64,000 nt of DNA from an uncultured Acidobacteriota bacterium (GCA_963836075.1 CAWIIB010000001.1:1024001-1088000); one strand, 5' to 3'. Positions 1 to 9,909 are shown, counted from the first letter of the stretch. Numbers and translations are program-made. The notes: generated by a model not told the origin, from the letters alone.

Positions 1-2666
1 TCCGGCCCTTCGCGCCGCGGCAGCTGCTGTCCGCCCTGCCGGAATCGGTAAAATCAATCGCCGTCCTCGACCGGGCCAAGGAGCCGGGGTCCTCTGGCGA
101 AGCGCTCTACACCGACCTGCTCACCGCCCTGGCCGAAGGCCGTACCGAAGGCTACTCCCAGTTCGACAAGGATCCCACGATCATCGGCGGACGCTACGGT
201 CTCTCCTCCAAGGAGTTCGATCCGGCCATGGTCAAGGCGATCTACGACGAGTTGAAGAATGACTCGCCGAAGAACCACTTCACCGTGGGCATCACCGATG
301 ATGTCTCCAACTCTTCGCTGACCGTGGACCACAGCTTCGACACCGAACCGGACAAAGTGACCCGCGGCGTCTTCTTCGGTCTCGGCTCCGACGGCACGGT
401 GGGGGCAAACAAGAACTCGATCAAGATCATCGGCGAGGAAACGGACAATTACGCCCAGGGCTATTTTGTCTACGACTCGAAGAAGGCCGGCGCGGTGACC
501 GTTTCCCACCTCCGCTTCGGCCCGGACCCGATCCGCTCGATCTACCTGATCAAAAAGGCCAACTTCGTCGCCTGCCACACGGAGGTGTTTCTCGAACGCT
601 ACAACATGCTGGCCTACGCCCAGCCGGGCGCGGTCTTCCTGCTCAACTCGCAGTCGGGGCCGGAGGAGGTGTGGGACACCCTGCCCATGGAGGACCAGCA
701 GTCGATCATCGACAAGAAGCTGAAGTTCTACACCATCGACGCCTACCAGGTGGCCCGGGAGACCGGCATGGGGGTGCGGATCAACACCATCATGCAGACC
801 TGCTTCTTCGCCATCTCCGGCGTGCTGCCCCGTGACGAGGCCATTGCCCAGATCAAGAAAGCGATCAAGAAGACCTACGGCAACAAGGGTGAGGAAATCG
901 TCAAACTCAATTTCAACGCCGTGGACCAGACCCTGGCCCACCTGCACCAGGTGAAGGTGCCCGGGGCGGTGACCTCCACCAAGACCCGGCCGGCACCCGT
1001 TTCCGACGAGGCGCCCGAGTTCGTGCAGAACGTCACCGCCGAGATCATTGCCGGCCGCGGCGACGACCTGCCGGTGAGCGCCTTCCCCGTGGACGGCACC
1101 TGGCCCGTCTCCACCACCCAGTGGGAGAAGCGGAACATCGCCCTGGAGATTCCGGTCTGGGAGTCGGACATCTGCATCCAGTGCAACAAGTGCGCCATGG
1201 TCTGCCCCCATGCCGCCATCCGGCCCAAGGTCTACGACCCGAAGTATCTCGACGGCGCGCCGGCGACATTCAAGGCCGTGGACTACAAGGGCCGTGAATT
1301 CCCGGGGACCAAGTACACCCTGCAGGTGGCCCCCGAGGACTGCACCGGCTGCGAACTCTGCGTCAGGGTCTGTCCGGCCAAGGACAAGAAGGACCCCGAA
1401 CGCCTGGCGATCAACATGGCTGCGCAGCCGCCTCTGCGGGAGAGCGAGCGTGAGAACTACAAGTTCTTCCTCGACCTGCCCGACCCGGACCGCACCAAGG
1501 TCAAGACCGACACCAAGGGGACCCAGTTCTTCCGGCCCCTCTTCGAGTATTCCGGGGCCTGCTCCGGCTGCGGCGAGACACCGTATGTCAAGCTGCTGAC
1601 CCAGCTCTTTGGCGACCGGGCGATCATCGGCAATGCCACCGGCTGCTCCTCGATCTACGGCGGCAACCTGCCCACTACCCCCTACACGGTGAACGCCGAC
1701 GGCCGCGGCCCGGCCTGGAACAACTCCCTGTTTGAAGACACGGCGGAGTTCACCTACGGGTTCCGGCTGGCCGTGGATCAGAACCGGGTGGTGGCCGAGA
1801 ACCTGCTCAAGGGCCTCGGACCCAAGATCGGTCAGATTCTGGTGGATGAGATTCTCACCGCTGACCAGACGAGCGAGTTGACCATCGCCGAACAGCGTTC
1901 GCGGATCGCGGCCCTCATCGACCAGCTGAAATCGTTCGACGACCCCGAAGCCCGGCAGCTCTCCCAGCTGTCTGAATACCTGGTGCGCAAGTCGATCTGG
2001 GGCGTGGGCGGTGACGGCTGGGCCTACGACATCGGCTACGGTGGACTGGACCACGTGCTGGCCAGCAATCGCGACATGAACCTTCTGGTGCTGGACACCG
2101 AGGTGTATTCCAATACCGGCGGCCAGGCCTCCAAGGCCACGCCCATCGGGGCGATGGCCAAGTTTGCCATGGGCGGCAAAGCCATCGCCAAGAAGGACCT
2201 GGGCATGATGGCCATGAGTTACGGCTACGTCTACGTGGCCCAGGTGGCCATGGGGGCCCGGGACGCCCAGACGGTGAAAGCATTCCTCGAGGCCGAATCC
2301 TACGAGGGGCCGTCACTGATCATCGCCTATTCCCACTGCATCGCCCACGGCTTCAACCTGGCCGACGGACTGGAGCAGCAGAAGCTGGCGGTGAACAGCG
2401 GCTACTGGCCGCTCTACCGCTTCGACCCGCGGCGCACCATCAAGGGTGAAAACCCGCTGCAGCTGGACTCCAAGGCGCCGTCGGTGGATTTCCAGTCTTA
2501 CGCGCTCAACGAGACCCGCTACCGGATGCTGCAGAAGATCAACCCCGAGCGGGCGCGGATGCTGCTGGACCACGCCCAGGGAACCATCAACGCCAAGTTC
2601 CGCAAATACGAGCAGCTGGCCAAAATGAACTTTGGCGACCAGGACGAGGGGGACGGGGAAGCGTAG
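1..2666 (+). CDS. nifJ: Pyruvate:ferredoxin (flavodoxin) oxidoreductase, 5'-truncated by window edge
   Basis: Frame is open from base 3 (RPFAPRQLL...VLDRAKEPG). Motifs GLGSDGTVGANKN, two CxxCxxCxxxCP ferredoxin motifs, GACSGCGETPY and TPP motif GGDGWAYDIG. Confidence 0.97.
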   Translation, partial: RPFAPRQLLSALPESVKSIAVLDRAKEPGSSGEALYTDLLTALAEGRTEGYSQFDKDPTIIGGRYGLSSKEFDPAMVKAIYDELKNDSPKNHFTVGITDDVSNSSLTVDHSFDTEPDKVTRGVFFGLGSDGTVGANKNSIKIIGEETDNYAQGYFVYDSKKAGAVTVSHLRFGPDPIRSIYLIKKANFVACHTEVFLERYNMLAYAQPGAVFLLNSQSGPEEVWDTLPMEDQQSIIDKKLKFYTIDAYQVARETGMGVRINTIMQTCFFAISGVLPRDEAIAQIKKAIKKTYGNKGEEIVKLNFNAVDQTLAHLHQVKVPGAVTSTKTRPAPVSDEAPEFVQNVTAEIIAGRGDDLPVSAFPVDGTWPVSTTQWEKRNIALEIPVWESDICIQCNKCAMVCPHAAIRPKVYDPKYLDGAPATFKAVDYKGREFPGTKYTLQVAPEDCTGCELCVRVCPAKDKKDPERLAINMAAQPPLRESERENYKFFLDLPDPDRTKVKTDTKGTQFFRPLFEYSGACSGCGETPYVKLLTQLFGDRAIIGNATGCSSIYGGNLPTTPYTVNADGRGPAWNNSLFEDTAEFTYGFRLAVDQNRVVAENLLKGLGPKIGQILVDEILTADQTSELTIAEQRSRIAALIDQLKSFDDPEARQLSQLSEYLVRKSIWGVGGDGWAYDIGYGGLDHVLASNRDMNLLVLDTEVYSNTGGQASKATPIGAMAKFAMGGKAIAKKDLGMMAMSYGYVYVAQVAMGARDAQTVKAFLEAESYEGPSLIIAYSHCIAHGFNLADGLEQQKLAVNSGYWPLYRFDPRRTIKGENPLQLDSKAPSVDFQSYALNETRYRMLQKINPERARMLLDHAQGTINAKFRKYEQLAKMNFGDQDEGDGEA

Positions 2667-2687: not shown

Positions 2688-2725
2688 AAACGGCCGCGGT
2701 GCTCCGGCGCCGCGGCCGTTTTTTT
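2688..2725 (+). terminator. Rho-independent terminator after PFOR (possibly bidirectional)
   Basis: AAACGGCCGCGG...CCGCGGCCGTTTTTTT stem plus T tract between convergent genes. Confidence 0.85.
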
Positions 2726-2741
2726 ATGCAGAAAACCGACC

Positions 2742-3236
2742 TCAGGAAGGGGAGAGCCAAAGGCCGAGGTGGATCAGGGGGACAAGCAGGAGCCGGGACA
2801 GGCGGTGGGAGAGCATACCCAGGCGGCCCAGCCGTCCCGCCAGCGGATTGACCCAGGTCCAGGGACGGCGATGCAGCAGGAGCGTGTGCTCCGGGCCCAG
2901 GATGGCGGTCACCCGGCCGAGCATCATCTCCGAAGGGACCCATGACCAGGCCCGGGAGTTGTCCCCTTTCTGGCAGCAGGGGCGGCTGCCGTCGGCGGCC
3001 GCCCGGGACATCAGCAAGCGGTGAACCACCACCGTCTCGCCCTGGCGCAGGGCAATGATGTCGCCGCAGCGGAGCCGCTCCGGGGAGATCGGCTGAATGG
3101 TGACCCGGTCGCCGGGGGAGGCCACCGGCACCATGCTGCGCCCCTCCAGACGGAGAGTGAACTCCTGCCGGCTGTGCCGCCAGAGGTCCAGCACGGCGGC
3201 GGTCACCGGCAGCCCGGGTGCTCCCTTTTCCCCCAC
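2742..3236 (-). CDS. S24/S26-family (signal peptidase I-like, Ser-His type) peptidase; last gene of RiPP-like operon
   Basis: EGRSMVP (catalytic Ser), GDII, VVHRL (His) and KGDN motifs. Starts 4 nt after the C25 gene stop. Confidence 0.85.
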   Translation of the reverse strand: MGEKGAPGLPVTAAVLDLWRHSRQEFTLRLEGRSMVPVASPGDRVTIQPISPERLRCGDIIALRQGETVVVHRLLMSRAAADGSRPCCQKGDNSRAWSWVPSEMMLGRVTAILGPEHTLLLHRRPWTWVNPLAGRLGRLGMLSHRLSRLLLVPLIHLGLWLSPS

Positions 3237-3240
3237 CTGC

Positions 3241-5985
3241 TCACTCCCACGATTTGAGCCGCGAGGCCGGGTCTCCCAGAAGGGTGAACATGCTGACCAT
3301 CACATCGGTGGCGCCCAGAGCATGCGCGGCCACCTTGGCCTCGGTGACAATGACACCGAGACGGTCCTCCCCTTCATCAAAGATCAACGAGAAGATTTCC
3401 GGGGCCAGGAGATCCTGTTCCCAGGTGTAGCTCAGCCCACTGGGCGAGAAGCATCCGAACCCGCCGCCCAGTTCCGCAGTCGCCAGCTCCTCGGCCAGAC
3501 AATAGTAGAACGGATGCGAGAAATAGCCGTTGAGACAGGTCATGGTGAGCACGAAGGTCAGGGCGTCCTCGTTACTCAGCGACGCCACGTCGGCCGAGCG
3601 GAACATATACTCGCCGGCCCAGCCGGTCACCGACCCGTGGCCGTTGTAGTGGACGATGATCTCACCGATGTTGAAGCCCCGGACAATGTCTTCCGTGGCA
3701 TCGTCCACCACGCCGTACTGGGAGAGATACACCCGGCCAGGCACCATCCCATTGGGCAGCATGGCCAGCAGCGTCTCGTTCAGCGACTCGAAGACCGGCT
3801 CGTCGTCAGCGATAAAGAGGGCACGGGCGGGCACCGCTGCCGTCGATTGCTCGTGGGCCAGCAGCCGGGCCACCATGCGCCCGGCCATATCCAGATCGCT
3901 GGCCGGCAGCCGCCCGATACACATCTCCGGCAGGACATCGTCGCCTTCCACACAGACATACCAGTTGTCGTCCGGCGTCAGCCCCAGTTCGCTCAGTGAA
4001 AGGTGCACCGGCACCCGGCTCTGTTTTCCGGTGCCGAAATAGTCGAGGTAATCGGTGTTGGCATCCCCCAGCAGCAGAACGAACTCCGGGGCCGGGGCCG
4101 GCCACTCCCGGTAGGCATGGCCCAGGAAAGCCTGCAGCGCCGCCGGGTCGGCGATCCCGTGGTTGAAGTCGTCGTAGATATCCTCCAGGGCCACCGACAC
4201 GGCGCGGAGCCCCTGGCCCTGGCGATAGCTGACCAGCGGGTCGGCGGCCGCCAGGAACTCCCGCGGCGTGATCAGGATATAGTCAGCACCGTCACCGCCG
4301 GCCCAGAGCCCCGGCGATGTCCAGCCCTCCACCGATGCCGGGGACCGGAAACGGCCCGACGTCAGAGCCTGGTACCGTGCGGGGCCACCGGCGGTCTCTC
4401 TCCATGCCGCCGTGAACCCGCCTCCGGCCTCGCTGATGCCGACGCCCACCACGCGCTTCACGCTCAGATGGGAACTGATATCAAAGACGGCCACCTCCGG
4501 TTCCGAGAAACCGTGGACAGCAATGACCTGGGGGCCGGCCCCGGCAGTGGTGATCCAGAGCTGGTCGTCCATGGCGCGAAGACGTCTGCGGTAGTCCAGC
4601 TCGATCCAGTTGACGTATATGCTGTCCACCGCCGCCCCGGTGTCACCCGGGCAGTTCACGGTGATGGTATTCAACCCCTGGGCCAACAGATCGGAGGTGA
4701 TGGTCATCTCCTGGACAAAAACGTGGTCACCGTCCCAGAACTGGTCCCCCGCCTCGACCCCGTTGACCCGCACCCGGGTGTGATGGTTGGGATGCGGTGC
4801 CGCTGTGGAACGTCCCCGGCAACACACCCGGAGGGTTCCGTCCCACACTCCGGGAGCGAGGTTGGGAATTTCCAGCTGGTAGTCCATGGACGAGGGCGCG
4901 GTGAGCATGTCCCAGAACCAGTAGTCCTCCTCCGGCGCCCCCGGTGCCGCCTCCCACATCCGGTGGTTTTCCTCCACGTGCACGGTTTCAGTGGTGGAGG
5001 TGACCAGTCTGCCGCCGCCGGCGAGCGAACCATTCACCACATCCATCCGCTTACCCGGAGGGCCGTTCCAGTAGAGCCAGTAAACGTTGGTCCCGGTGAA
5101 GCTGCTCTCCATAGCCTGGCCGTAGAAAATGAGGCTCCCCTCGGGCCATGGCACGTCCTTTTCCGGGCCGGCCACCAGAACCGGCACTTCCCTTCCCCGG
5201 TTGAACAGTTTCAACGTGGCCCGGTCAATTGCATCCACCTCGCCGTGGCTCAAACCCGTGGAGAGCAGCGCTGCCACATAGTCAATGGCATGGAGGCCGT
5301 CTTCCTCCACCTCAATGCGCAACGCCCCGTCGCTTCGTGGGCCGGGGAGACCGACCAGTCCACCGGGGGAAGAAATGGCTGAACCCGTGCCTGGCGGAGC
5401 CTCCGGCGACGCCACAGCTCCGACCGCCGGCTGGACAAAGCTGAGCCGGACCAGCAGGCGGGTGGCACAGCGCAGGTTTCCAGCCGATGGATCCCACTGG
5501 AAGGGCTGGAATAGAACCCGGGCCATCCGGGCGCCACGCCGCACAGCCGGTGGGTCCACCGCCACCAGGGCGGCGGGATAGATCCCCGTGCCCCCGATAC
5601 ACCGTTCCGTGCCGCCGCCTTCCGGAGACAGGGTCAGGACGGGGAAGAGCCGCTGCAGCTGGTGGTGCTCGTAGTCCACATCGAGGATCTCGGCACTCAA
5701 TGCGCTTCCCTCGGGGAGCGGAATGGTGCAGCCAAGACGGGGCAATTCGGGCAGGCCGATATCCGAGGTCCTGGCCCAACCGTCCACCACCACCCGCCGG
5801 CATGGTCCGTCCGGCCCCGCGGTCGGCACCAGCCGGTAGGTCGGCAGGTTGAGTTCCAGGGTCATGCCCCGGGAGTCCCGGTCCCGCAGGTCAAGTTCAC
5901 CGGGAAGCGACAGGGCCGGGCCGGGTGTCAGAGCGCCGGCCGGCACCGTGAGCAGAAGCAACAGCAGAGTTAGTCCGTATCTCAT
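3241..5985 (-). CDS. Secreted C25-family (gingipain-like) cysteine peptidase with N-terminal propeptide
   Basis: Signal peptide, propeptide-like GLPELP region, ADYILIT, YDDFNHG, VLLLGD, IGRLP, catalytic YNGHG and MTCLNG, terminal LLGDP. Confidence 0.9.
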   Translation of the reverse strand: MRYGLTLLLLLLTVPAGALTPGPALSLPGELDLRDRDSRGMTLELNLPTYRLVPTAGPDGPCRRVVVDGWARTSDIGLPELPRLGCTIPLPEGSALSAEILDVDYEHHQLQRLFPVLTLSPEGGGTERCIGGTGIYPAALVAVDPPAVRRGARMARVLFQPFQWDPSAGNLRCATRLLVRLSFVQPAVGAVASPEAPPGTGSAISSPGGLVGLPGPRSDGALRIEVEEDGLHAIDYVAALLSTGLSHGEVDAIDRATLKLFNRGREVPVLVAGPEKDVPWPEGSLIFYGQAMESSFTGTNVYWLYWNGPPGKRMDVVNGSLAGGGRLVTSTTETVHVEENHRMWEAAPGAPEEDYWFWDMLTAPSSMDYQLEIPNLAPGVWDGTLRVCCRGRSTAAPHPNHHTRVRVNGVEAGDQFWDGDHVFVQEMTITSDLLAQGLNTITVNCPGDTGAAVDSIYVNWIELDYRRRLRAMDDQLWITTAGAGPQVIAVHGFSEPEVAVFDISSHLSVKRVVGVGISEAGGGFTAAWRETAGGPARYQALTSGRFRSPASVEGWTSPGLWAGGDGADYILITPREFLAAADPLVSYRQGQGLRAVSVALEDIYDDFNHGIADPAALQAFLGHAYREWPAPAPEFVLLLGDANTDYLDYFGTGKQSRVPVHLSLSELGLTPDDNWYVCVEGDDVLPEMCIGRLPASDLDMAGRMVARLLAHEQSTAAVPARALFIADDEPVFESLNETLLAMLPNGMVPGRVYLSQYGVVDDATEDIVRGFNIGEIIVHYNGHGSVTGWAGEYMFRSADVASLSNEDALTFVLTMTCLNGYFSHPFYYCLAEELATAELGGGFGCFSPSGLSYTWEQDLLAPEIFSLIFDEGEDRLGVIVTEAKVAAHALGATDVMVSMFTLLGDPASRLKSWE

Positions 5986-7137
5986 GTGGTCTGTTCTTCC
6001 TCTTCGGGCCGGGTGGCGTCGAGCGCCAGTTGCCTGACCAACGGTTCCTGCTCCTCAAAACGGCCCACCGTCAGCCGGAAGCAGGAGATATCGCCAATAT
6101 GCTCGATGAGCTCCTTCATCCGCATAACGGACCCGGTATCCCTGCCCCGCCCGGATGAATCGACCCGTTGTTTTATTCCGGGCAGCAGGCCGAATGCCGC
6201 CTGGTGGACTGGTATGCTCTCCAGCGCCGGTGAACGTGAGAAATCGGGCCGGGCCGTCTCACCCCTGAACACGTTGAGCAGATGGTCCCGGTGTTCCTCC
6301 AGCAGGTCCGCAAGACGGACTGCCAGCCCTTGCCCCAGCGGGTAGTCCAGCCGGAATTCGGCCACATCGGTGAGCGGTCTGGTCACTTCGATTCCGGGGT
6401 GCAGTCGGACCAGGGCATCGAGCAGCGGCTCCCAGCCCGGCTCCCGGGCCCCGATCACCAGCCGGCCCATGGCCCTGGCTTGCGGCCCCGGATCGAGGAT
6501 GAGCAGCAGGGCCGGCGCTGCCGTTGCACCGCCTGTCGTTTCACCAGCAATGGCCGGCAGAGGGATCTTTCCACCCCTCAGCGCCACGCCATCGCTTACC
6601 GACTCCGCCGGCCCTTCTTCAGGAACCACCCAGAGACTGCGCGGAAAGGGGTGAACCCGGCCGGTCCGGCGGTGGACCGGACATATTTCATCGGAATAGA
6701 GGGTGAACCCCGCTTCGGCCAGGGCCAGGGCCATGGTGGTCTTTCCCGTGCCCGGCGGCCCGGCCAGGATCACCGCCCGGCCATGGCGCACCGCCACTGC
6801 CGCGTGGAGCAGCAGGTGATGGTTCAGGCTGTCAAAAAGTGTCTGGGTGACCCACTGCCAGGCATGGTGGACCGGGGTGGGATGTCCGTCGAGGGACTGT
6901 TCCCCGTGACGGTCAGCGCCGCCCGCGGTGCGCGGCGGCCCGGGAGAAGCTGACCCCCGGCCCCTCCGGCCCGTTGAAGCAAGCGCTGATCCGCAGGTCG
7001 GCGTCAACCCCGGACACAGTGGTGCGGAACGACCCGTAATCCCGGTCAAACAGTTCCAGCAGCTGTTCCGAATCGCTGGACAGGTCCAGGTCCGTTCCGA
7101 GAATGCAGTAGCGTGCCTGGTGCCGGTCCCGGATCAC
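5982..7137 (-). CDS. HprK-related P-loop kinase-like protein (one frame break near 6930-6960)
   Basis: GTG start overlaps the rSAM stop (GTGA). N-part MIRDRHQARYCILGTDLDLSSDS continues in another frame into LLHAAVAVRHGRAVILAGPPGTGKTT...YSDE...PFPR. Confidence 0.75.
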
Positions 7138-8534
7138 GACGCCCCCTTTTCCGCAGCGGCGCCGCGAGCGCTCTCCCGATGCAAAATACCGTCGAACGCT
7201 TCCCGGTAGGCCTCCTGGCGGTAAGGACAGAAGTCGTCCCGCTCCCAGATGCTCCCCCGATGGTCCAGAGCCTGGCCCATACAGCCGGCCTGGCACAGGT
7301 TCCGCCAGTGACAGGCGGCGCACTCGGCGATCTCCCGCCGCCGCCGGCTCAGAGCCGAGCAGGCCCCGGCCATGGCGGGGTGCTCCAGGCTGGCGCGGAG
7401 GCCGTCACGCAAAACGTTTCCCAGACGAAATTCATCGCGCATCAACAGGACGCAGGGATAGGCCGAGCCGTCCACGTCGGCCACCAGGGTCCGGCCCACG
7501 GAACACCAGATGCCATCCGGGGCGATGGCCGGGGGGACTTCCAGCAGGAATCCGCTCAGACCGCAGTTGACGCTCACCGCGCAGCCGCCGCCGCGCTGCG
7601 CCGCGGCCACCTGATGGTAGAACGCCTCTTGATCCTCCACCGTCACCCCGGCGCCGATGCTGGCCCAGTTGCCTGCCGCCCGGCCCCGGCGCCCCAGGGG
7701 CAGGAAGCGGACCTGGGGCACCCCCCGATCCTCGGCCAGCCTGATGATCGCCGACAGCTGGTGCACATTCTGCTTCATGATGGTGGTGGAGAGATTGAGC
7801 TGCTCCCCCAGGCCGGCCCGCTGCAGGAGTTCCACGGCGTGCAAAGCGGCGGCGAAACTCCCCGCAGCCCTGATCCGGTCATGGGTCGCCTCGTCGGCCC
7901 CGTCCAGGCTGACCTGGACCAGCGCACCGCTCTCGGCCAGGAAGGCAGCCCACCGGTCATCGATGAGCGAACCGTTGGTCAGCAGTCGGACGCGCATGCT
8001 CCCCGCGGCATGACTGATCAAATCCTTCACCCGGGGGTGCAGCAGGGGCTCGCCGCCGCTAATGGTCACGCTCCGCGCTCCCCCGGCGGCCGCCTCGTCG
8101 ATCAGCCGGCAAGCCGCCTCGAGGGGCATGTCCAGGGTTTCCCGGTCAGCGGCGTGGTAGCAGTGGACACAGGCATAGTTGCAGCGGTGGGTGATGTGCA
8201 GAAAAAGCGATTCCGCCAGCGGGACACGCCGCGGCGGGTCGAGGGCTGGGGAATCGAGAAAGCCGCGGTGGCGGAGCTCGTCGGCCACCCGGTCCACATC
8301 GCGCCGGGCCTCGTCTCCGCCGAGGCCGTAACGCCCGGCCAGCGCGGCGGCCGCGCCCTCGCGGTCCGCTCCGGCGCCGAGAATCCCGGCAATTTCGCGG
8401 GTGGTGGCGTTTACCACCAGCCAGCGGGGATCACAGCGGTGGAGCATGACCAACCGATCCCGGGAGCCTTCGGGCAAAGGGGTGTCGGGGTAAAAAAACC
8501 AGGAAGGTTCCGGTGCTGGGGAATGTCTGTCCAA
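7134..8534 (-). CDS. Radical SAM/SPASM peptide maturase with N-terminal PqqD-like RRE domain
   Basis: CNYACVHC, SGGEPLL, QVSLDG; SPASM cysteines CSVG...AYPC...CAACHWRNLCQAGC...FC; N-terminal VVNATTREI...LAGRYGL...ARRDV...LRHRGFL is PqqD-like. Confidence 0.93.
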   Translation of the reverse strand: MDRHSPAPEPSWFFYPDTPLPEGSRDRLVMLHRCDPRWLVVNATTREIAGILGAGADREGAAAALAGRYGLGGDEARRDVDRVADELRHRGFLDSPALDPPRRVPLAESLFLHITHRCNYACVHCYHAADRETLDMPLEAACRLIDEAAAGGARSVTISGGEPLLHPRVKDLISHAAGSMRVRLLTNGSLIDDRWAAFLAESGALVQVSLDGADEATHDRIRAAGSFAAALHAVELLQRAGLGEQLNLSTTIMKQNVHQLSAIIRLAEDRGVPQVRFLPLGRRGRAAGNWASIGAGVTVEDQEAFYHQVAAAQRGGGCAVSVNCGLSGFLLEVPPAIAPDGIWCSVGRTLVADVDGSAYPCVLLMRDEFRLGNVLRDGLRASLEHPAMAGACSALSRRRREIAECAACHWRNLCQAGCMGQALDHRGSIWERDDFCPYRQEAYREAFDGILHRESARGAAAEKGAS

Positions 8535-8584
8535 GAGCGATATATCCTGCCCGGGAATTCCATGGACCGCCCCGGCACCACGCC

Positions 8585-8755
8585 CTAGAAGATGGCGCAG
8601 GGTGCGGGGCTGCAGGCATGCGCGGGCCCGGCCTGCTCCAGGATTTCCACGCTGCTGTAACTGGTGATTACCGGTGATTCGTAGCGGATCCGAATTCCGG
8701 AATTTTTCCGGTCGCAGCGGTCCGGCTTCCGCGGTTCAGTTCTCTCCTCAATCAT
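8585..8755 (-). CDS. Putative RiPP precursor peptide (56 aa; predicted core CSPAPCAIF)
   Basis: GGGAG-rich RBS before ATG; leader motif YESPVI; lies directly upstream of the RRE-rSAM gene. Confidence 0.82.
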   Translation of the reverse strand: MIEERTEPRKPDRCDRKNSGIRIRYESPVITSYSSVEILEQAGPAHACSPAPCAIF

Positions 8756-8839
8756 CTCCCTCTCCCGGTTACGGCCCCAGGCAGGTGTTGAACCCCTCTC
8801 CACAACATATCTTTTCGGCAGTAATGCGTTTTGACTGAA

Positions 8840-8868
8840 AATTTAACAACAACCCTCCGGGCTGTCAA
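8840..8868 (-). promoter_or_regulatory. Sigma70-like promoter of the RiPP-like operon
   Basis: Minus strand TTGACA-N17-TAAATT about 85 nt upstream of the precursor ATG. Confidence 0.65.
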
Positions 8869-8885: not shown

Positions 8886-8914
8886 AAAAAAACCCCCGCC
8901 AGGCGGCGGGGGTT
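8886..8914 (-). terminator. Rho-independent terminator after mdh
   Basis: AACCCCCGCC/GGCGGGGGTT stem followed by a T tract on the minus strand. Confidence 0.8.
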
Positions 8915-8946: not shown

Positions 8947-9909
8947 CTACTTGCCCATCGCATCGACTTCGCCACAGGTCTTCTTCACGGCGTTGATCGA
9001 GTGCTTCAGGGCCTTCTTCTCTTCCGGGGTCAGCTTGATCTTGATGATCTTCTCCACGCCGTCCTTGCCGAGGATGGCGGGAACGCCGACAAAGAGCCCC
9101 TTGACGCCGTATTCGCCTTCGAGCAGCGCGCAGACCGGGACGATCTTCTTCTTGTCATACATGATCGCCTCGACCATCTCCAGCGCCGACCAGGCCGGGC
9201 TGACAAAGGCCGAACCGGAGCCGAGCAGGCCGACCACCTCGCCGCCGGCCTTGCGGGTCCGGGCTTCGATGGCCTCGAGCTTCTTGGGGCTGACAAACTG
9301 TTCCACCGGCAGGCCGTAGACCCGGCAGGCGCTGCGGATCGGCACCATGGTGTCGCCATGACCGCCAAGCACCACCGCCTCGATGTTTTCCACCGAGACG
9401 CCGGCTGCTTCGGCTACGAAATACTTGTAGCGGCCCGAGTCGAGCACACCGGCCATACCGATGATCTTGTTCTTCGGACAATTCAGCTTCTTGAACAGGC
9501 GGTAGACGATGGCGTCCAGCGGGTTGGCCACGGAGATGACGAAGGCGTTGGGGCAGTACTTCTTGATCCCCGCGGCCACCTTGTCGGTGATCCCCAGGTT
9601 GATCGCCAGCAGCTCTTCGCGGCTGGGGAAGGTGCCGTCGGGCCGCACGGTGCGCGGCACGCCAGCGGTGTTGATCACGAAGTCGGACCCCTCGAGAACC
9701 TCGAAGGTCTGGCTCGCCTGGAAGTTGACGTCACGGCTGATGGTCGGCATCCCCTCGGCGATGTCGAGGCACTTGCCCTTTGCCAGGTTGGGGGGCTTGG
9801 GATCCACCAGGCCAACGTTGCGCGCGAGACCGCGCGAGACGATTTCCGATACCAGGACGCCGCCGATCTGGCCGCCGCCCACGAGTCCGATCTTGTTGAC
9901 CATCGACAT
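8947..9909 (-). CDS. mdh: Malate dehydrogenase (LDH-like type)
   Basis: GGGQIG, TAGVPR...SREELL, ANPLDA, GMAGVLDSGR and VLGGHGDTMVP motifs. Confidence 0.92.
   Translation of the reverse strand: MSMVNKIGLVGGGQIGGVLVSEIVSRGLARNVGLVDPKPPNLAKGKCLDIAEGMPTISRDVNFQASQTFEVLEGSDFVINTAGVPRTVRPDGTFPSREELLAINLGITDKVAAGIKKYCPNAFVISVANPLDAIVYRLFKKLNCPKNKIIGMAGVLDSGRYKYFVAEAAGVSVENIEAVVLGGHGDTMVPIRSACRVYGLPVEQFVSPKKLEAIEARTRKAGGEVVGLLGSGSAFVSPAWSALEMVEAIMYDKKKIVPVCALLEGEYGVKGLFVGVPAILGKDGVEKIIKIKLTPEEKKALKHSINAVKKTCGEVDAMGK

Follow-up and report, generated by a model that had tools for sequence, protein, structure and literature searches.

A peptide, radical SAM enzyme, HprK-like kinase and C25 peptidase operon of an uncultured Acidobacteriota bacterium as a probable relative of the linear polyphosphorylated peptide pathway

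What would be made by five genes that follow one another in a 64,000-nucleotide stretch of DNA from an uncultured Acidobacteriota bacterium (GCA_963836075.1, CAWIIB010000001.1:1024001-1088000), and has a pathway of this kind been described elsewhere? The stretch as a whole is referred to here as the window. The genes, which lie with their promoter between positions 2742 and 8868, encode a small peptide, a radical SAM enzyme, an HprK-like kinase, a secreted peptidase of family C25 and a small S24/S26-type serine peptidase. A first-pass annotation had taken them for an uncharacterised pathway to a ribosomally synthesised and post-translationally modified peptide (RiPP). That interpretation is supported by the present analysis, and is now anchored to a characterised relative, the linear polyphosphorylated peptide (LPP) pathway, which is the closest characterised system. 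The operon is probably a RiPP-type peptide-maturation pathway related to the LPP pathway and to the tailoring module of the phosphorylated lasso peptides, with two added enzymes. The sequences show that the five genes are conserved as a cassette and that the precursor is one of a large family, in which the leader is conserved and a single cysteine is invariant.

The five-gene operon described in the annotation was confirmed, apart from a frameshift of the kinase gene in the assembly, which had been missed. All five genes are co-oriented and tightly spaced. The radical SAM and kinase genes overlap at a GTGA (7137-7134) and the kinase and C25 genes at an ATGA (5985-5982), while gaps of 50 nt and 4 nt separate the precursor from the radical SAM gene and the C25 from the S26 gene, respectively. 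Pfam and NCBIfam gave the same domain assignments as had been proposed, and no exporter gene is present among the operon genes, as had also been said. The promoter TTGACA-N17-TAAATT was recovered by a promoter scan, which found 2 promoter-like sites in 6.6 kb compared with 0.8 +/- 0.9 in shuffles. The orthologous locus L001 has the same TTGACA and TAAATT hexamers at an equal relative position.

The genome to which the window belongs (G000; 6.2 Mb in 10 contigs, 94.7% complete) shares the radical SAM enzyme, at 74% identity, with a second genome of its genus. L001 comes from an Acidobacteriota metagenome-assembled genome (MAG) that also belongs to this genus. The enzyme was not found at E <= 1e-40 in a third genome of the genus, nor in 38 genomes of other families of the phylum. 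The family as a whole has at least 170 members at E <= 1e-20 among 8000 candidates scored, and its named members come from Desulfobacteraceae, Thermodesulfobacteriota, Acidobacteriota, Terriglobales and others. When genome and metagenome collections were scanned with the family alignment and follow-up searches were added, 28 loci with a family member were obtained. Many of these are short contig pieces, and all were typed by one uniform pass of tblastn and hidden Markov models. A precursor-like open reading frame, the adjacent peptide gene that the annotation had wanted looked for beside radical SAM homologues, is present in 20 of the 28. The kinase was found in 18, the C25 catalytic domain in 16, the S26 peptidase in 12, a PF14907 nucleotidyltransferase in 7 and an undescribed domain, termed WET below, in 12. 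Where at least 4 kb of sequence was available 3' of the radical SAM gene (13 loci), the kinase and the C25 peptidase were each present in 12. The cassette is hosted by Acidobacteriota, Thermodesulfobacteriota, Planctomycetota and others, and this synteny across phyla rules out a chance adjacency of the five genes.

L034, a divergent locus, was the only one seen to have a separate PqqD gene, and L225 the only one with an MsbA-like ABC exporter between the radical SAM and C25 genes. On the flanks of the cassette in L201 (13139-18328), L036 (37-1669) and L026 (3705-6083) there are glycosyltransferase, sugar-transferase, aminotransferase and PMT-type genes. Two further places in the genome of the window may hold additional cassettes. 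At G000:C1:1290412-1293636 a weak HprK-like match lies about 0.4 kb from a PF14907 gene, with a radical SAM/SPASM relative at about 2 kb, and at G000:C9:1712532-1718312 about 5 kb separate an HprK-like match from the genome's other PF14907 gene.

The precursor of the window reads MIEER...YESPVI...CSPAPCAIF, with the leader motif and tail that had been reported. A charged N-terminus is followed by the leader Y25-E-S-P28-V-I-T-S-Y33, then by G43-P-A-H-A-C48 and the tail SPAPCAIF. Y25, P28, G43, P44, A45 and C48 are invariant in 14 aligned precursors. After Y-x-x-P-x-[IV] the consensus reads T-Y-x-x-E-E-I-x-E-x-I-G-P-A-x-A-C. A word-indexed search with the 56-aa peptide returned only itself and one relative of 91% identity, whereas a profile built from the 14 precursors picked out 503 cluster representatives from 1.84 billion proteins at E <= 1e-3, of which 78 also reached E <= 1e-10. 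The relatives are mostly 40-80 aa long. Motifs were counted in 151 proteins, ie 150 among the profile matches listed and P0137. A motif of the G-P-A-x-[A/T]-C type is present in 129; the other 22 have the leader but lack the motif as defined, the cysteine being replaced in some, with deviations elsewhere in the motif in others. Among the 129, the residue directly after the invariant cysteine is Ser in 77, Thr in 20 and Ala in 17, and a Ser or Thr occurs among the three residues that follow the cysteine in 119. The annotation had described a tail with two cysteines. That is correct for the peptide of the window but fails as a general model, since only the first cysteine is invariant; the second is found in 92 of the 129, separated from the first by four residues in 45 and by five in 25. 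The tail after the invariant cysteine has a median length of 10 residues and a range of 3-44, and its C-terminal residues vary. A constant leader and cysteine with a hypervariable tail is the usual pattern of RiPP precursors.

The genome has a second, unlinked precursor gene at G000:C9:1759764-1759916 (L267; about 13765-13917 in L269), which has a different N-terminus but an identical core, CSPAPCAIF, and is situated upstream of a subtilase/FG-GAP gene. In L030 (6795-7550), from a SEEP-SRB2 MAG, the S26 reading frame continues without a stop into that of the precursor, which may represent a peptidase-precursor fusion; the L030 precursor also has an internal ATG-ATG start. The precursor core (8585-8611), together with an S26-type peptidase, recalls the nickel-hook N-terminus of Ni-superoxide dismutase, which is exposed by an S26 peptidase. 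We take this likeness to be probably a coincidence, and the only computed link to it is a weak match of the S26 peptidase to TIGR02754 (E 3e-5).

The radical SAM enzyme has a PqqD-like RiPP recognition element (RRE) at about residues 29-93, a radical SAM core with C118-x3-C122-x2-C125, and a SPASM region. The three core cysteines and those of the SPASM region (C344, C361, C405, C408, C414, C418 and C436) are invariant in 20 sequences, so that the CxxxCxxC motif, the seven-cysteine SPASM region and the RRE of radical SAM/SPASM peptide maturases are all present. In Pfam the scores were 22.1 bits for PqqD, just below the cut-off of 23.4, 88 bits for PF04055, and 22.6 bits for the SPASM family PF13186 against a cut-off of 21.5. 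As PF05402 (PqqD) is matched by 19 of 20 family members and the leader has Y-x-x-P, the pairing of an RRE with a YxxP-type leader put forward in the annotation is supported. Family members share an N-terminal SFF-x-Y stretch that precedes the annotated ATG, and this speaks for the TTG start.

When the profile of the enzyme was compared with solved structures, the best match was to an anaerobic sulfatase-maturing enzyme (anSME; 4k36, E 7e-35, over the whole core and SPASM region), followed by SkfB (6efn, 3e-28), CteB (5wgg, 3e-26) and PqqE. The N-terminus also matched the lasso RRE TfuB1. No curated NCBIfam cut-off was reached. The highest score there was for MftC (TIGR03962; 138 bits, E 4e-40, cut-off 265), and the MftC, GeoRSP and sactipeptide maturase models all score at least as high as the anSME model, TIGR03942, which gave 96 bits for a cut-off of 349. 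Enzymes that form thioethers are marked by an open coordination site on their first auxiliary cluster. In a pairwise alignment with anSME, no cysteine of the present enzyme lies opposite the first cysteine of the anSME stretch S-S-S-C-G-M-N-G-T-C; the nearly invariant C324 could fill the site on the first auxiliary cluster. No sulfatase gene was found among the neighbours scanned.

The kinase matches HprK_rel_A (TIGR04352) over its P-loop region with 63.6 bits (E 1.5e-17; cut-off 200), and in Pfam scans gave P-loop-level matches only; by database assignment its family is PF27840. P-loop, H-A, S-D-E and P-F-P-R motifs are kept in the orthologues. Fold comparisons were made with the L001 orthologue, a single open reading frame of 381 aa, and the pieces of the window gene were left unjoined. 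The AlphaFold2 model has a pLDDT of 82, and Foldseek placed PEPCK first and HPr kinase/phosphatase (HprK/P) at rank 49; a sequence search of solved structures picked up nothing beyond the P-loop of AAA+ proteins. PEPCK and HprK/P belong to one fold class. One database protein (P0021, 659 aa) has radical SAM enzyme and kinase in a single predicted chain; this is a genuine fusion or else the product of two genes called as one across the GTGA overlap.

The C25 peptidase has an N-terminal signal peptide, a domain resembling the C25 propeptide and a catalytic domain with His (NGHG) and Cys (TCLNG) motifs. It scores 243 bits against PF01364 (cut-off 23). The annotation called it a gingipain; family C25 is correct, but it is better described as a PorU-like secreted C25 peptidase, with the reservation that its 202 bits against the PorU model NF033707 (positions 106-733 of 1095) fall below the cut-off of 420. 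The hydrophobic N-terminus and the catalytic His and Cys motifs are kept in all 11 orthologues examined. As this N-terminus is followed by an A-x-A-type site, the enzyme should act outside the cytoplasm. The genome shows a large expansion of secreted C25 peptidases, with 25 PF01364 matches, most of them in open reading frames of 750-2100 aa.

The S26 peptidase has G-x-S-M-x-P, V-H-R and G-D motifs, with Ser34, His73 and Asp93, the His and Asp being invariant in 10 of 10 orthologues. It matches Peptidase_S24 in Pfam with 25.9 bits and the archaeal-type signal peptidase I model TIGR02228 with 35.8 bits (cut-off 51.85), and its AlphaFold2 model (pLDDT 83) matches the folds of the LexA C-domain, human SEC11 and SipA. 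A membrane anchor at the N-terminus is absent from all 10 orthologues, in which no 19-residue N-terminal window exceeds a Kyte-Doolittle (KD) value of 1.6. The enzyme should therefore work in the cytoplasm. In two loci, L035 (14493-15062) and L112 (6206-6775), the nucleophile is changed from Ser to Cys, with G-R-C-M in place of G-x-S-M.

The LPP pathway (LppA/K/B/S/D/N; Popov et al., Nat Commun 2026, PMC13381572) provides experimental precedent for several of these parts. According to its main text, the pathway consists of a precursor with a YxxP leader, an RRE, an HprK-like kinase, a SipW-like leader peptidase and a PF14907 nucleotidyltransferase. LppK adds several phosphates to Ser3 of the core, and LppS (S29, H68, D93) cuts off the leader only when the RRE presents it (PMC13381572). 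The pathway is reported there as restricted to Bacillota.

From homology to these and other experimentally studied parts we infer three steps of a route for the operon. The PqqD-like RRE at the N-terminus of the radical SAM enzyme would bind the Y-x-x-P-x-[IV] leader. The HprK-like kinase would phosphorylate the Ser or Thr beside the cysteine, here Ser49, much as LppK acts on Ser3 of its core. The cytoplasmic SipW-like peptidase would remove the leader in the manner of LppS, most likely after G-P-A-x-[A/T], to leave a product of roughly 9 residues that begins with the modified cysteine. Signal-peptidase-type enzymes prefer small residues at -1 and -3, and the proposed site fits that preference; it also fits the Thr found at -1 in LPP precursors. 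Between leader binding and phosphorylation, the radical SAM/SPASM enzyme would act on or from Cys48, as the invariance of that residue and the class of the enzyme suggest. The most likely outcome would be a thioether of the sactipeptide or ranthipeptide type to a carbon in the short tail, and, less likely, an oxidation of Cys48 of the anSME type. In the last and least certain step, for which gene linkage is the guide, the product might leave through an exporter encoded elsewhere and be trimmed or ligated outside by the secreted PorU-like C25 peptidase.

Several observations weigh against this scheme. The 28 loci are not independent: one MAG contributes four of them, L035 is nearly identical to L112, and L001 and the window belong to the same genus. 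One locus, L108, has the radical SAM and S26 genes with neither kinase nor C25 within 9 kb. The operon of the window has no exporter and no PF14907 gene, the two PF14907 genes of the genome being located elsewhere. The tail has no conserved acceptor residue, and a second cysteine is missing from 37 of the 129 tails. Counting from YxxP, cleavage of the LPP type would fall 7 residues upstream of the proposed site. The C25 peptidase is extracytoplasmic and the other enzymes cytoplasmic, so that gene neighbourhood is its one link to the peptide, and with so many C25 homologues in the genome adjacency here would by itself mean little. Finally, the kinase gene is broken in the assembly, and if the break is real the strain might lack phosphorylation.

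That break is a net +1 frameshift at 6929-6931. It leaves an N-terminal piece of 74 aa, from GTG 7137 to a stop at 6913-6915, and a C-terminal piece in another frame that extends to 5982. Taken at face value it would mean that the pathway is decaying in this strain and that the operon yields at most an unphosphorylated peptide. We consider this unlikely. The other four genes of the operon are intact, and the N and C pieces are 94% and 92% identical, respectively, to an intact database protein of 386 aa (P0126). Relative to L001, the window gene has 10 extra bases in a variable linker. Logan contigs of four sequencing runs from four studies were aligned to the operon. At 6929-6931 the contigs of three runs, at least 88% alike, restore a single frame, those of X1 (mostly at least 99% alike) by 2 additional nt and those of X2 and X3 by 1 nt less; the X5 contigs do not cover the position. 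Two different frame-restoring indels in a G+C-rich run are typical of assembly error or strain variation, and we read the break as one or the other and not as a feature of the system. A programmed frameshift is ruled out, the L001 and P0126 genes being single open reading frames and the frame being restored by different indels in other strains. Among 21 runs, no RNA data set was listed that contains the stretch, which speaks neither for nor against expression.

A different explanation would make the cassette a system for processing or sorting protein tails and not a natural-product pathway, the precursor being a stand-alone version of a C-terminal tail that lies in the cytoplasm. The real clients would be surface proteins with an extracellular beta-sandwich domain of roughly 100 residues, here named WET after its motif W-E-T-A-S-E...G-F-x-L-W-R, for which scans of the copies used gave no Pfam or NCBIfam family. 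The genome collection yielded 294 stretches of it, of which 76 loci were kept. In three large proteins (P0221, P0228 and P0264) the C-terminal end matches the precursor profile. Their order is a signal peptide, extracellular domains (lamin-tail, propeller or ConA-like), WET, Q-T-x-C-G-V, a hydrophobic helix (KD over 19 residues 2.0-2.5), a basic cluster and then the full leader, GPAQAC and tail. The tail must therefore lie in the cytoplasm, in agreement with a cytoplasmic radical SAM enzyme, kinase and S26 peptidase, and the same core occurs as a free precursor beside radical SAM and kinase genes in the same MAG (L274). In 4 further loci the free precursor gene begins 45-242 nt after a WET-domain gene. 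The domain occurs in 12 of the 28 cassette loci; in L030 it forms the C-terminus of the C25 peptidase itself, and in L033, L109 and L225 it is carried by DUF7948/SBBP propeller proteins adjoining the cassette. The radical SAM family is present in 3 of 5 WET-bearing genomes tested, but the other 2 lack it at E <= 1e-60. In a protein atlas the nearest named clusters to WET were C-terminal sorting domains of the type IX secretion system (T9SS; score 0.85), a lead only, which scans with hidden Markov models do not confirm; none of 18 WET domains matched Por_Secre_tail in Pfam, even at E <= 10. Moreover, WET and tail are fused in frame in only 3 of the 76 WET loci, and those 3 belong to a single MAG. 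In the window, as in most loci, the precursor is a peptide that is small and soluble. There is no WET domain in the first 20 kb of the window, the only 3 matches of the genome being far away. On balance it is doubtful that the leader with G-P-A-x-A-C is a transferable tag, used also at the cytoplasmic end of single-pass surface proteins, and that the cassette is two-sided, with RiPP-type enzymes inside and a PorU-like C25 acting outside on the WET domain it shares with its clients. If it were so, radical SAM and RiPP chemistry would have been recruited to protein sorting or surface anchoring in bacteria with no known T9SS. In the genome of the window, WET is found at the C-terminus of a secreted C39-like peptidase (G000:C9:1656766-1657101, L264) and in a second protein (G000:C9:1751683-1752018, L265), where it is followed by another domain that is also carried by the L030 C25 peptidase.

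Two other proposals concern the radical SAM step. The enzyme might oxidise the invariant cysteine to a formylglycine-type aldehyde, as anSME does, and the resulting peptide aldehyde might regulate or inhibit the adjacent C25 peptidase by binding it covalently. Peptide aldehydes inhibit cysteine peptidases, and the proposal would explain the tight C25 linkage. It also accords with anSME being the best structural match, and many cores read C-[ST]-P-x-P, which resembles the C-x-P-x-R of sulfatases. However, the third and fifth positions of that motif are not conserved, the TIGR03942 score is far from its cut-off, the MftC, GeoRSP and sactipeptide maturase models do as well or better, and the kinase and S26 peptidase would be superfluous, which together make this very unlikely. 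More improbable still is that the peptide gives rise to a redox cofactor or to a small subunit of an enzyme, of the mycofactocin, PQQ or QhpC/QhpD type, used by the C25-family protein or another enzyme. Radical SAM/SPASM enzymes with an RRE do make peptide-derived cofactors, and MftC is the best NCBIfam match, but its score is below the cut-off. The region after the cysteine varies in both length and sequence, unlike that of cofactor precursors, and such a hypervariable tail behind a constant leader and cysteine argues against a cofactor precursor. Nor does the cassette contain a cofactor-dependent oxidoreductase.

The features of the operon and its flanks are collected in Table 1. The annotation had the operon bounded by hairpins. 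Both hairpins were found; the one upstream is the terminator of the malate dehydrogenase (mdh) gene. The other has its T-run on the + strand and is thus first of all the terminator of the convergent gene for pyruvate:ferredoxin oxidoreductase (PFOR).

Table 1. Positions in the window of the operon genes, the promoter and the flanking features
Feature	Position	Strand	Remarks
Precursor peptide gene	8585..8755	-	56 aa from ATG 8755; open reading frame 8585-8803 open up to GTG 8803
PqqD(RRE)-radical SAM-SPASM enzyme gene	7134..8534	-	466 aa, TTG start
HprK-like (PEPCK-fold) kinase gene	5982..7137	-	GTG 7137 start; two frames in assembly
Secreted C25 peptidase gene	3241..5985	-	914 aa
Small S24/S26 (SipW/SEC11-type) serine peptidase gene	2742..3236	-	164 aa, GTG start
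Sigma-70-type promoter TTGACA-N17-TAAATT, TG ahead of -10 hexamer	8840..8868	-	Promoter scan, 10/12 matches
Hairpin and T-run, terminator of upstream mdh gene	8891..8914	-	Insulates operon
15-bp hairpin between convergent PFOR gene and S26 gene	2688..2721	.	T-run on + strand
PFOR gene, convergent neighbour	3-2666	+	
mdh gene, upstream neighbour	8947-9909	-	

The radical SAM enzyme and the secreted C25 peptidase are undescribed additions to an LPP-like pathway. If the assignment is correct, a pathway of kinase and SipW-like peptidase published in 2026 as confined to Bacillota would extend into anaerobic sediment phyla, and would be joined to radical SAM chemistry and to a sortase-like surface peptidase. 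The precursor family, with 503 cluster representatives whose cores are short and variable and none of which has a known product, amounts to a class of modified peptides that is substantial and as yet untapped. That secreted C25 peptidases, glycan genes and an undescribed surface domain are repeatedly linked to it suggests that the product functions at the cell surface and not as a classical antibiotic.

Among known systems, several resemble the cassette in single parts. The MftA substrate of the mycofactocin pathway ends in a conserved Val-Tyr, whereas the C-termini of the cassette precursors vary. PorU, the C25-family sortase of the T9SS, is likewise a large secreted C25 protein with His and Cys motifs, but the C25 peptidase here sits in a peptide-maturation cassette. 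The sactipeptide and ranthipeptide maturases SkfB and CteB, and anSME, combine an RRE, radical SAM core and SPASM region and act on cysteine-bearing substrates, as the present enzyme would; the precursor family and partner genes differ. SynChlorMet (ScmC/E/F; TIGR04249-51) and HprK-related kinase A (TIGR04352) cassettes also place an HprK-like protein with PqqD and radical SAM/SPASM proteins, and the annotation had likened the operon to the former. There are partial matches, but all are far below their cut-offs, with 63.6 bits of 200 for HprK_rel_A, 27 of 125 for ScmC, 105 of 400 for ScmE and 101 of 400 for ScmF. A full-text literature search found no paper on SynChlorMet or HprK-related kinase A cassettes. 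The same kind of search found none that combines a radical SAM enzyme, an HprK-like kinase and a C25 peptidase, although subscription-only papers and the supplements of PMC13381572 could hold relevant clusters. The description of the pathway as uncharacterised thus stands for the five-gene combination; LPP, which matches it in part, has been characterised in the meantime.

In the phosphorylated lasso peptides of the paeninodin type, an HprK-like kinase, with or without a PF14907 nucleotidyltransferase, tailors a peptide with a YxxP or WxxP leader that is bound by an RRE (PMC13381572). This tailoring module is shared with the cassette. Neither a lasso cyclase (C) nor a B2 cysteine leader peptidase turned up in the loci scanned, and the cassette precursors, unlike those of the paeninodin type, do not end in Ser.

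The comparison with the LPP pathway, as published in the main text of PMC13381572, shows both clear differences and a common plan. LPP clusters are described without a radical SAM enzyme or a C25 peptidase, and the terms 'radical SAM', 'SPASM' and 'C25' do not occur in that text; the cassette has both enzymes. In the LPP pathway the RRE is a discrete protein, LppB, and in the cassette it is the N-terminal domain of the radical SAM enzyme. LPP clusters carry an MsbA-like exporter and a PF14907 NTP transferase, neither of which is in the operon of the window, although the latter was found in a quarter of the related loci (7 of 28). The cassette precursors match only the Y-x-x-P-x-[IV] part of the LPP leader motif YxxPxVLxHQxIxFETxxS, and their core, unlike that of LPP, is short and begins at the invariant cysteine. 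The hosts also differ, being Bacillota for LPP and Acidobacteriota, Thermodesulfobacteriota, Planctomycetota and others for the cassette. Common to both are the Y-x-x-P-x-[V/I] leader, the PqqD-type RRE and the HprK-like kinase. The S26 peptidase resembles LppS as published in being of the SipW type with Ser, His and Asp, and the spacing from Ser to His is 39 in both. Several cassette loci have glycan or cell-surface genes as neighbours, as LPP clusters do, and the flanking glycan genes of L201, L036 and L026 echo the polysaccharide-locus context reported for the latter. Since the LPP pathway shares the kinase, the SipW-like peptidase and the logic of YxxP leader and RRE, the phosphorylation of a serine and the removal of the leader that are proposed here rest on experimental precedent and not on an analogy with SynChlorMet.

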